Source: a virus (taxonomy: Duplodnaviria; Caudoviricetes). Taken from it: DNA of 64,000 nucleotides. Both the position numbers and the translations under genes were made by a program. Position 1 is the stretch's first letter; the number at the start of each line of letters is the position of its first letter. The DNA lies in the IMG/VR virus record IMGVR_UViG_3300038393_000457, positions 19,809 through 83,808 of that record. One strand, written 5' to 3'. Shown here one piece after another: positions 5,436-27,208 of the stretch. The notes below the pieces were generated by a model, which had not been told where the DNA came from, searched no databases, and saw nothing but the letters and a program-made list of their open reading frames with translations.

Positions 5436-5999
5436 TCAACAAATTTACTAGTCGGAATTGATTATAGTCTTAGCTGCCCGTGCATTGGTTTTCTTGATGG
5501 AGGACAGATGCATTTTCGGTTCCTAACAGACACCAAGAAATACATCAATAAATGGAAATACAAGAACCTGATCATAGAAGGAATTGAACATAAGAATTGG
5601 AGTCATCCACTAGAACGCTACAACAATATTGCTGTTCAGATACTTGGTGACACTGATTATGAAGTCAAGACTTTAAGAAATGCCAAAAACATTAACATCG
5701 AAGATTATTCTATGGGCTCTAAGGGAAAGGTATTTGGGATTGCAGAGAATACGGCAATCCTTAAGAACCATCTTTGGTCAAAAGAAATAACATATGGAAC
5801 AATCCCACCAACTGTTGTGAAGAAATTTGCAACCACAAAGGGTAATTCCAAGAAAGAACAGATGTATGAAGCATGGTTAGATCAAGTTGGGATCGATCTA
5901 AAGAAGCTCATGGATATTGAAACTGATAAAGTAACTTCACCTTTGTCAGATTTAGTAGATGCGTTTTTCTTAGCTAAACTTGACAAGTGGCATAAGTAG
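5433..5999 (+). CDS. RuvC-like Holliday junction resolvase (phage type)
   Basis: VGIDYS, IEDY, PPTVVKKFAT-KGN--KEQM and DLVDAFFLA acidic motifs. Confidence 0.8.
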   Translation: MSTNLLVGIDYSLSCPCIGFLDGGQMHFRFLTDTKKYINKWKYKNLIIEGIEHKNWSHPLERYNNIAVQILGDTDYEVKTLRNAKNINIEDYSMGSKGKVFGIAENTAILKNHLWSKEITYGTIPPTVVKKFATTKGNSKKEQMYEAWLDQVGIDLKKLMDIETDKVTSPLSDLVDAFFLAKLDKWHK

Positions 6000-6012
6000 T
6001 ATATAAGTAAAA

Positions 6013-12198: not shown

Positions 12199-12486
12199 TT
12201 GGCTAAGACTAGACGACATGAGGAATATGAAGATAGTGGTTACAACCAACTATCTTTTGCGCCTTTTTGTGATGATTTCAGACATTTAGTTTGTCTACCA
12301 TATTCAGTGGAAAACCTACATATTATAGCAAAAGAACTTGGTATTGGTAGGTCTTGGTTCCACGAAGGTAGACTTCCTCATTATGATATTCCAAAGAAGC
12401 GCGTTGATGAAATCACATCTCTGTGCAATGTCATTTCAACACGTGATATTGTGAGGATTATCAAAGGTCAAATTGGTAATACCTAA
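12199..12486 (+). CDS. DUF4031-like protein
   Basis: LH--A-ELGI-RSWFH-----HYDIP pattern; start codon uncertain. Confidence 0.55.
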   Translation: MAKTRRHEEYEDSGYNQLSFAPFCDDFRHLVCLPYSVENLHIIAKELGIGRSWFHEGRLPHYDIPKKRVDEITSLCNVISTRDIVRIIKGQIGNT

Positions 12487-12494
12487 AAAAGGAT

Positions 12495-12522
12495 TTGACA
12501 AAAATTAAGAGTGGTGTATAAG
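12495..12522 (+). promoter_or_regulatory. Sigma70-like promoter overlapping a late-like TATAAGTA motif
   Basis: TTGACA-N16-TATAAG, 6 nt upstream of the allo-tRNA-like pair. Confidence 0.65.
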
Positions 12523-12528
12523 TAATAC

Positions 12529-12623
12529 GGATGCTGAACTGGACAAGCGCGCCGGCCACGACTTGAAATCGTGTGGAGCCTCAGAGATGGGGTTTGGAGG
12601 GCAGGACTACCCGGCATCCGCCA
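12529..12623 (+). tRNA. Non-canonical 8/4 (allo-tRNA-like) tRNA-Ser(UGA)
   Basis: 8-bp acceptor GGATGCTG/CGGCATCC, G73, CCA; CACGA-CTTGAAA-TCGTG; long V arm; T loop lacks TTCG. Confidence 0.65.
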
Positions 12624-12625
12624 TT

Positions 12626-12714
12626 GGAAAGTAAATTGCTCGGGCGGGCAACCACGCTTGGAAAGCGTGTGGTTCTTTAAAAGGAATACGGATCAAGACC
12701 GTTGCTTTCCTCCA
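12626..12714 (+). tRNA. Non-canonical 8/4 or 9/3 (allo-tRNA-like) tRNA with GGA (Ser) anticodon
   Basis: GGAAAGTA(A)/(T)TGCTTTCC-TCCA; 6-bp D stem TTGCTC-GGGC-GGGCAA; CACGC-TTGGAAA-GCGTG; T arm ACGG-ATCAAGA-CCGT. Confidence 0.7.
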
Positions 12715-13402: not shown

Positions 13403-13990
13403 GTGCAAATTCTTTCACTTGACAAGTCTGGGTATCCTAGAGGGTTTATTACGATCCAAAATGCAATCGAAATGATTGCGAAGGATAAAATCCTTTGGAG
13501 TCTTGGTAACCCAATTGCAACTTATCGTGGTGGTTATAACAATGATGGTGTGCGTTCCGTAATCGAAACGCCACCTATCATTGCTATCACCGGAACAGAG
13601 TTTGCAAAACAAAAGCGTTTTCCTAAAGTTATCCTGACGAACAATTCGCTTTTTAGTAGGGATCGTCATATTTGCGCTTATTGTGGTGGAAAATTCATGC
13701 CACGAAAGCTATCACGTGATCATGTAATACCTGTTTCTCGTGGTGGTCCGAATACCTGGAAGAATGTGGTGACTGCATGTATCCCATGTAACACCAAGAA
13801 GGATAATCGGACCCCAGAAGAAGCTGGAATGAAACTTCTGTATGTTCCTTATGAGCCCTCTCATGCGGAACATCTAATATTGAAGAATCGCAACATCACA
13901 GAAGATCAAATGGATTATCTATCAAACCATGTGTCGCCGGAGTTTCTCCGGCGCATGACGGATGTAGAATTATTTGGTGAGGATAAATAA
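13403..13990 (+). CDS. HNH endonuclease (McrA-like HNH_5 type)
   Basis: [10 protein letters not shown]...[38 protein letters not shown]. Confidence 0.9.
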   Translation: [195 protein letters not shown]

Positions 13991-16718: not shown

Positions 16719-16798
16719 GGGGGACGGGACTGCTTGGGGTGGTCGTCGCACTTGCAATGCGAATATTCAGCAGGGTTCAAATCCCTGGTTCTCCACCA
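16719..16798 (+). tRNA. tRNA-Ala(UGC)
   Basis: TCGCA-CTTGCAA-TGCGA; G3:U70 pair; ACCA end. Confidence 0.9.
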
Positions 16799-17646: not shown

Positions 17647-17721
17647 ACGGGAGTAGCTCAGTGAAAGAGCGTCTGGCATCAGGTCAGAAGGTCGGTGGTT
17701 CAAGTCCATCCTTCCGTGCCA
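17647..17721 (+). tRNA. Degenerate tRNA with UCA at the anticodon position (probable pseudo-tRNA, Pro-like body)
   Basis: ACGGGAG/CTTCCGT-GCCA; TCTGG-CATCAGG-TCAGA; A33, and D loop lacks GG. Confidence 0.55.
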
Positions 17722-18634: not shown

Positions 18635-19045
18635 GAACGTCGGTCAGATATGGCCGATTGGATCGCTCAGGTGGTCCTAGGTTCTTGGACAAGTTTTGCG
18701 GTAGCTTACGGATGTTTGTCTAGGTCGAAAGACTAAATTTCGGAGTGTGAAGGAAGCACGGTGGTCTTTTAGACGACCAGAATCGGATCGTTACCGGTCG
18801 AAATTTTCCGCAACTAAATAGACAACCGTAGTGTGAAGAACACGTAAATCGGATGAATTTTTGGCATTGAGTGTTTGGGAAAGTATGATATCTGACTGCA
18901 CTGGTTGATGCATTCCAGACGGTCTAACTCAACTATCACCGTTGGTTATCATGGTACATGGTGGAAATGGTATACACGCACGTTTTGAAGACGGGCGCTC
19001 GAAAGAGATTGCAGGTTCGAATCCTGTTGTACACTGTGACGATCC
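18610..19045 (+). ncRNA. Large structured ncRNA candidate with an embedded tRNA-like domain
   Basis: Stems 18631-18638/18681-18688; 10-bp long-range stem 18785-18794/19036-19045 encloses the tRNA-Leu-like module. Confidence 0.5.
18952..19035 (+). pseudogene. tRNA-Leu-like module (UGA at anticodon position), incomplete acceptor, no CCA
   Basis: TGGTGGAAATGGTATACAC D arm typical of Leu; CTC-GAAA-GAG V arm; GCAGG-TTCGAAT-CCTGT; only 5 acceptor pairs. Confidence 0.55.
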
Positions 19046-20723: not shown

Positions 20724-20805
20724 GCCAAGTTCGCATAGCGGCGATTGCAGCACTTTTGTAAAGTGCCATTCCACATCGGGGGTTCGAGTCCCTCACTTGG
20801 CTCCA
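20724..20805 (+). tRNA. tRNA-Thr(UGU), enlarged variable region
   Basis: GCCAAGT/ACTTGGC-TCCA; GCACT-TTTGTAA-AGTGC; 11-nt variable region. Confidence 0.88.
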
Positions 20806-22489: not shown

Positions 22490-22574
22490 GCGGGTGTCGG
22501 ATAGCGGCTATTCCGCTTCCTTGCCAAGGAAGAGCCGAAAGGCATCATGGGTTCGAGTCCCATTACCCGCTCCA
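22490..22574 (+). tRNA. tRNA-Gly(GCC) with long variable arm
   Basis: GCGGGTG/TACCCGC-TCCA; CTTCC-TTGCCAA-GGAAG; V arm GCC-GAAA-GGC. Confidence 0.88.
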
Positions 22575-22824: not shown

Positions 22825-22908
22825 ATCGGTGCTAGGGTAGTGGGATACCTAACTGTCTCCAAAACAGTCGCCTAGAGCTAGGGGGTTCGATTCCTCACAC
22901 CGGTGCCA
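22825..22908 (+). tRNA. tRNA-Trp(CCA), enlarged variable region
   Basis: ATCGGTG/CACCGGT-GCCA; ACTGT-CTCCAAA-ACAGT; 12-nt variable region. Confidence 0.82.
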
Positions 22909-23405: not shown

Positions 23406-23478
23406 GTGGGCGTGGTGTAGTGGTAGCACAGGAGATTGTGATTCTCCAGGGATGGGTTCGAACCCCAAGCTCACCCCA
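23406..23478 (+). tRNA. tRNA-His(GUG)
   Basis: GGAGA-TTGTGAT-TCTCC; C73-CCA; acceptor/T junction one nucleotide short. Confidence 0.82.
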
Positions 23479-27125: not shown

Positions 27126-27208
27126 GCACACGTCCCATAGCGGCCATTGGAGCAGACCCTTAATCTGTCGCGAAAGCATCGTCGGTTCGAGTCCGACCGT
27201 GTGTACCA
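27126..27208 (+). tRNA. tRNA-Lys(CUU) with long variable arm and C33
   Basis: GCACACG/CGTGTGT-ACCA; GCAGA-CCCTTAA-TCTGT; V arm GC-GAAA-GC. Confidence 0.82.

Follow-up and report, generated by a model that had tools for sequence, protein, structure and literature searches.

Tandem (8/4) tRNASer genes in an uncultured phage: a further instance of a described class, with one atypical member

Two adjacent tRNA genes in an uncultured virus of the Caudoviricetes are tandem (8/4) tRNASer genes, a further instance of a described class, and one of the two is atypical. In both, the coaxial acceptor/T helix is still 12 bp long, but it is split 8+4 rather than 7+5. The genes lie in the window, the whole 64,000-nt stretch analyzed here, which is part of an 83.8-kb IMG/VR record (IMGVR_UViG_3300038393_000457) with an estimated completeness of ~47%. 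A first-pass annotation, made from the letters of the window alone, had reported two adjacent CCA-ended tRNA genes with 8-bp acceptor stems; these are real and lie 2 nt apart (Table 1), and we refer to the upstream gene as t1 and the downstream gene as t2. They belong to a large phage-borne family, for the most part unannotated, that forms a subgroup of the allo-tRNAs, and it is probable that both are elongator tRNAs for UCN codons, charged by the host SerRS. Allo-tRNAs were defined by Mukai et al. (2017, NAR 45:2776; PMC5389517), who also reported (8/4) tRNASer in phages. Thus, the novelty initially claimed for the pair was overstated, as phage (8/4) tRNASer with serine anticodons are already in that paper (PMC5389517).

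Table 1. Positions of the tRNA pair, its structural elements and the candidate promoter in the window, and of homologs in cultured phages (R1 and R2, covariance models described in the text)
Feature	Position	Strand	Remarks
Candidate sigma-70-like promoter	12495-12522	+	TTGACA 12495-12500, 16-nt spacer, TATAAG 12517-12522
t1, (8/4) tRNASer(UGA) variant	12529-12623	+	95 nt; R2 53.1 bits, E = 1.6e-10
t1 acceptor stem	12529-12536 / 12612-12619	+	8 bp, GGAUGCUG/CGGCAUCC; AA linker after the 5' strand
t1 D arm	12539-12555	+	
t1 anticodon UGA	12564-12566	+	anticodon loop CUUGAAA
t1 V arm	12576-12595	+	8 bp, closed by GAGA loop
t1 T arm	12596-12611	+	4 bp, bulged A at 12609
t1 G73; encoded CCA	12620; 12621-12623	+	
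Spacer between t1 CCA and t2 G1	12624-12625	+	TT, 2 nt
t2, (8/4) tRNASer(GGA)	12626-12714	+	89 nt; R2 84.6 bits, E = 4.7e-18, no mismatch, no indel
t2 acceptor stem	12626-12633 / 12703-12710	+	8 bp; AA linker after the 5' strand
t2 D arm	12636-12651	+	6-bp stem, GGGC tetraloop
t2 anticodon GGA	12660-12662	+	5-bp anticodon stem
t2 V arm	12672-12687	+	6 bp, abuts the T stem directly
t2 T arm	12688-12702	+	ACGG-AUCAAGA-CCGU, 4-bp stem, 7-nt loop
t2 U73; encoded CCA	12711; 12712-12714	+	
(8/4) tRNASer homologs, MT188704.1	41613-41704; 41789-41877; 42130-42221		found with R1
(8/4) tRNASer homologs, OP186293.1	14214-14299; 14904-14994; 16027-16116		found with R1
(8/4) tRNASer homologs, OR257569.1	13289-13374; 14635-14721; 15910-16003		found with R1

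The 12-bp acceptor branch reads as 8+4 in both genes, with standard pairs throughout in t2 and one bulged A in t1. The long V arms recorded at first inspection are present, 8 bp in t1 and 6 bp in t2, as are the T loops that differ from TTCG (GGCAGGA in t1 and AUCAAGA in t2) and the anticodons UGA (t1) and GGA (t2), which separate (8/4) tRNASer from the suppressor allo-tRNAs. Both anticodon stems have five standard pairs; extending them by a sixth would require C.U, or else C-G and a bulged U. For SerRS of the E. coli type, the established identity set comprises G1-C72, G2-C71, A3-U70, G73 and a long V arm (see also PMC5389517); the long V arm is accompanied by G73 in t1 and by U73 in t2. A Sec-like D arm occurs in the two genes, as a 6-bp stem with a GGGC tetraloop in t2, where it had been noticed before, and as a variant with AAGC in t1, and the long D stem covaries in homologs (compensatory change in six of six pairs). 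Chance is ruled out by the E-values of both genes over the 64-kb window (Table 1), since the family model R2 was built without the window's sequences.

Of the pair, t2 is the regular one, and its minimum free energy (MFE) fold matches the 8/4 cloverleaf exactly (-29.9 kcal/mol, z = -2.27). It is also the only one of the two reported by ARAGORN, whose drawing shows an acceptor stem of 8 bp and a T stem of 4 bp. A ninth acceptor pair (A9-U77) is possible in t2 only, and the 8/4 and 9/3 folds of this tRNA are nearly equal in energy (-27.7 versus -27.3 kcal/mol). Nevertheless, the 9-bp acceptor stem once considered for t2 is not conserved, as the pair forms in just one of 11 homologs, t2 itself. 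It is very probable that t2 is active.

Comparison among homologs makes the 8/4 reading of the family firm, with covariation rejecting both 7/5 and 9/3. With 11 distinct sequences, pairing holds in 94.6% of cells and compensatory change occurs in 22 of 29 pairs; with 84 sequences, the values are 95.5% and 27 of 29. These pairing counts are somewhat inflated by the fitting of the alignments (A2 and A3) to the structure of the model. The reading stays firm despite this fitting owing to the number of pair types and to the slide controls, in which only 41-49% of cells are paired. In particular, the eighth acceptor pair occurs as five pair types in the 84 sequences (GC 42, AU 22, UA 12, CG 7 and GU 1) and is unpaired in none of them. 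By contrast, the fifth T pair required by a 7/5 tRNA is formed in 2 of 11 sequences, and the ninth acceptor pair required by a 9/3 tRNA is the one restricted to t2.

Three other tRNA classes were accordingly set aside. The (9/3) allo-tRNA class fails on the ninth pair. The canonical 7/5 class fails on the fifth T pair, which would be U.U in t2 and U.C in t1, and on the lack of a match to the Rfam tRNA model (RF00005). The tRNASec class is excluded by anticodons other than UCA, by the 8/4 branch and by the lack of a match to the Rfam tRNA-Sec model (RF01852); neither gene matched either model at E <= 10 in a 401-nt search.

To place the pair among relatives, a covariance model (R1) was built from t1 and t2 with the 8/4 structure. 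R1 gave nine full-length matches, with E-values between 1e-13 and 1e-7, in three cultured α-proteobacterial phages (Table 1), namely Mesorhizobium phage Cp1R7A-A1, Rhodobacter phage RcXuper and Ruegeria phage RpAliso; in the feature tables of the first two (MT188704 and OP186293), the matches fall in unannotated gaps of tRNA clusters. In addition, a scan of IMG/VR with the family T-arm motif returned 60 loci, a sample biased by the use of a single motif, and R1 found 100 full-length matches, 84 of them distinct, in 44 of these loci. ARAGORN calls only 20 of the 100. Family members sit inside phage tRNA clusters, with 575 tRNAs called by ARAGORN in the same 44 loci. Tandem arrays are common, with spacers of 1-10 nt in 18 adjacent family pairs of other phages.

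The 84 distinct members are uniform in identity, as all have serine anticodons (GGA in 27, CGA in 20, UGA in 19 and GCU in 18). The discriminator is G73 in 76 of 84 and U73 in 7 of 84, the 5' end starts with GGA in 75, and the AA linker is present in 73. The most frequent T loop is the consensus AUCGAGA (41 members), which has A54 instead of U54, followed by UUCGAGU (10), AUCAAGA (8, as in t2) and GUCGGGA (5).

The reciprocal model R2, built only from IMG/VR sequences, recovers t1 and t2 in the window and scores every other tRNA there at 34 bits or less, and the whole contig yields no family member beyond the pair. For the phage itself, no close relative was recovered. Searches of 50,697 phage records with the region, by megablast and by blastn, gave no match, blastn of t1 and t2 singly gave chance matches only, and protein-seeded IMG/VR scans with two neighboring genes gave nothing. 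Relatives of the ribonucleotide reductase are only 49% identical, and no family member was found within the stretches examined around them, up to 10 kb on each side of the gene. Two narrower probes were discarded: the exact D-arm 17-mer had one match in IMG/VR, a coding sequence hit by chance, and a metagenome scan with the shared anticodon-arm motif returned ordinary cellular tRNASer (29-37 bits).

The family is abundant in phage contigs, and its distribution bears on why the 8/4 form is kept. In prokaryote genomes, the same T-arm motif picked out 80 loci, none matching R1, and in five α-proteobacterial genomes the best family-model matches (41-47 bits) are canonical 7/5 tRNASer with a mismatch at the forced eighth pair. 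One may argue from this distribution, and from the A54 of the consensus T loop, that the 8/4 form shields phage serine decoding against tRNA-targeting factors of the host or of competitors, such as anticodon or acceptor nucleases and tRNA-depleting defences, or lets it escape host T-loop modification, and that the genes serve counter-defence as much as codon supplementation. We regard this as unlikely, as the anticodon loops are ordinary and the distribution is accounted for just as well by plain inheritance within the phage tRNA gene pool. We know of no nuclease that discriminates an 8/4 from a 7/5 tRNA. Moreover, (8/4) tRNASer also occur in some bacteria (Mukai et al. 2017, PMC5389517). A bolder proposal, to which we give a slim chance, holds that the lineage is largely confined to phages and absent from the sampled hosts, that its shifted junction and A54 loop are kept for insensitivity to host tRNA-targeting defences or modification enzymes, and that t1, with A18/G55 and a bulged T stem, is a further specialized form and not a wreck.

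The status of t1 is less clear than that of t2. The family model R2 lays out its T stem as G-C, G-C, A-U and G-C with A 12609 bulged, leaving the loop GGCAGGA. Thus, of the T stems of 3-4 bp described by the first-pass annotation, the 4-bp form stands for both genes, and no 3-bp stem is found, t1 having 4 bp plus the bulged A. By eye, this arm can be read in several ways; readings as 7/3, as 8/2, as 8/5-like, or with a G.A mismatch and an extra C were dropped, the family model favoring the bulged A with four standard pairs. The D arm, CUGG-ACAAGCGCG-CCGG, has 4 bp, an A.G mismatch, a C-G pair closing the AAGC tetraloop and one bulge. The 8/4 cloverleaf of t1 lies at -31.8 to -32.6 kcal/mol, 1.2-2 kcal/mol above the MFE of -33.8 kcal/mol. 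The 16-mer of the t1 T arm has four matches in IMG/VR, all by chance and none fitting the family model.

It may be either a working variant or a decaying copy; with its bulged T stem and G55, t1 may be weaker or inactive. There is a substantial, though minority, chance that t1 is a decaying duplicate, a pseudo-tRNA of (8/4) tRNASer, in which case only t2 would translate and t1 would be a 5' passenger of the transcript. Against the family model, its score is 31 bits lower than that of t2, its fold gains no stability over shuffled sequence (z = -0.64), and ARAGORN misses it even at lowered thresholds. What sets it apart is the inserted or bulged T-stem A, absent from all other members (0 of 100 relatives), together with G55 in place of the near-universal U55, and its D loop has A18 instead of G18. 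Against decay, however, the four T-stem pairs, the eight acceptor pairs, the V arm, G73 and CCA are all intact, as is the anticodon arm with U33 and A37, and the D-arm variant is common to many family members. In addition, relatives carry T loops with G54/G58 (GUCGGGA), and in one relative, L077:155-249, a D loop reading AAGC goes together with a T loop bearing G55 (AGCAUGU). The window also holds a 7/5-type tRNASer(UGA)-like gene at 18951-19036, with two mismatches atop its acceptor stem and no encoded CCA. This gene scores only 17 bits with R2 and shares the t1 anticodon, and its presence could make t1 redundant.

Upstream of the pair, the arrangement TTGACA-N16-TATAAG named by the first-pass annotation is confirmed directly ahead of t1 (Table 1), and the stop of a 95-aa ORF (12199-12486) precedes its TTGACA. 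Reading it as a promoter is reasonable on three grounds. An identical TTGACA-N16-TATAAG is found at 5980-6007, ahead of an NMN adenylyltransferase/Nudix gene; a -10 match of at least 5/6 accompanies 9 of the 59 plus-strand TTGACA sites in the window but none of the 50 minus-strand ones; and G1 of t1 begins 7 nt past the end of the -10 hexamer. This 7-nt gap also points to a transcript whose leader is short or missing. The weakness of the candidate is the G at the last -10 position, as TATAAG is without the conserved T there. TTGACA itself is in excess in the whole window: base composition predicts ~20 sites per strand, and the plus strand has 59 and the minus strand 50.

The neighbors of the tRNA pair are a small ORF, a 198-aa ORF of unknown function and an HNH endonuclease. 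The last is a homing-endonuclease gene at 13403-13990, ~700 nt downstream of the pair (phrog_16726, E = 1.4e-25). ARAGORN counts 27 tRNAs in the window and 31 on the whole contig.

For the pair as host-charged elongator tRNAs, the following course can be proposed. An early sigma-70-type promoter would start transcription at G1 of t1, or one or two bases away, giving a dicistronic precursor that RNase P would cleave within the 2-nt spacer to free the 5' end of t2, with the CCA ends supplied by the genome. The host SerRS would charge both tRNAs through the long V arm, the G1-C72, G2-C71 and A3-U70 pairs and G73 or U73, and EF-Tu would accept the 12-bp helix. In decoding, GGA would read UCU/UCC and UGA would read UCA/UCG, the commonest serine codons of this AT-rich phage. 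We infer expression, processing, charging and decoding from what has been published on other 8/4 allo-tRNAs, which are active in E. coli and insert serine there (Mukai et al. 2017, PMC5389517). That the host enzyme does the charging is suggested by the result that no class II synthetase core (PF00587), and so no phage-encoded SerRS, was found on the 84-kb contig. Serine codons in 78 ORFs of the contig are UCU (27.5%), UCA (22.2%), UCC (15.4%), AGU (14.8%), AGC (10.4%) and UCG (9.8%), and the two anticodons would thus serve the four UCN codons, ~75% of the total.

It is very improbable that t1 and t2 are regulatory or decoy tRNA-like RNAs instead of adaptors, as proposed for the inactive allo-tRNA(UAU) near toxin-antitoxin loci: some allo-tRNAs found near toxin-antitoxin systems are indeed without activity in E. 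coli, and the T and D loops of t1 are unusual, but every family member has a serine anticodon and SerRS identity elements, the members sit among the 575 tRNAs of phage clusters, and no toxin-antitoxin genes flank the pair.

Among known systems, the closest are the (8/4) tRNASer of Mukai et al. (2017). The likeness extends to the 8-bp acceptor and 4-bp T stems, the long V arm, G73 or U73, the long D stem with a tetraloop, the serine anticodons and the location in phage tRNA clusters, and the homologs found here are in α-proteobacterial phages, a group named in that paper. The differences lie in the T arm of t1, with its GGCAGGA loop and a bulge in the 3' strand of the stem. In addition, (8/4) tRNASer and (8/4) tRNAHis co-occur in α-proteobacterial phages (PMC5389517), whereas the phage of the window keeps a 7/5 tRNASer(GCU), and its tRNAHis is not 8/4. 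The latter, tRNAHis(GUG) at 23406-23478, had been a candidate 8/4 tRNA, and a recount gives 7/4, with a 4-bp T stem, junction mismatches G7.A66 and A49.A65, and C73.

With the 8/4 and 9/3 suppressor allo-tRNAs, the pair shares a 12-bp branch shifted to 8/4, a Sec-like D arm and serine identity elements. However, the anticodons of those tRNAs are for Leu, Ile, Arg, Asp or stop codons, and the tRNAs either are inactive or serve as missense or nonsense suppressors, whereas t1 and t2 have cognate serine anticodons and 9/3 is unsupported for them. Similarly, the pair resembles bacterial tRNASec (8/5; RF01852) in the 8-bp acceptor stem, the 6-bp D stem with a 4-nt loop, the long V arm and, probably, serylation by SerRS, but differs in a T stem of 4 bp instead of 5 (12 bp in total instead of 13), an anticodon other than UCA and the lack of an Rfam match, and there is no sign of a SelA/SelB pathway for t1 and t2. 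Canonical 7/5 class II tRNASer share the GGA 5' start, the V arm and G73, and t2 has exactly the anticodon arm of α-proteobacterial tRNASer(GGA), CACGCUUGGAAAGCGUG. They differ in that the pair has an acceptor/T junction shifted by one base pair, a V arm directly adjoining the T stem, a Sec-like D arm and a T loop with A54.

The abundance of the family confirms that tRNAs outside the 7/5 plan are no rarity in phage tRNA clusters but belong there regularly. Serine tRNAs are undercounted in phage tRNA inventories, given the low ARAGORN recovery and the copies left unannotated in GenBank phage genomes. The gains are modest and lie in the abundance and under-annotation of the family and in the atypical t1, the window itself being ordinary. 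Why phages keep the 8/4 form would be better addressed in the cultured RcXuper, RpAliso and Cp1R7A-A1 than in an uncultured contig.

Several other features of the window deserve mention. From 40500 to 62000 (~21 kb), it has only seven ORFs of at least 150 aa under table 11, the longest of 222 aa; reading TGA, TAG or TAA as sense in the 40-62 kb stretch gave no clear answer on recoding as a reason for the short ORFs. GC content rises to as much as 55% at 44-46 kb. A 75-nt 7/5 tRNA with anticodon UCA at 17647-17721, labeled SeC by ARAGORN, is opal-suppressor-like and scores 50.9 bits with the Rfam tRNA model. Moreover, five tRNAs of 80-85 nt have enlarged variable regions, namely Gly(GCC) at 22490-22574, which has a 4-bp extra arm, Lys(CUU) at 27126-27208, Thr(UGU) at 20724-20805, Trp(CCA) at 22825-22908 and Ala(UGC) at 16719-16798, and 88-nt tRNA-Lys genes are annotated in Cp1R7A-A1 and RcXuper.
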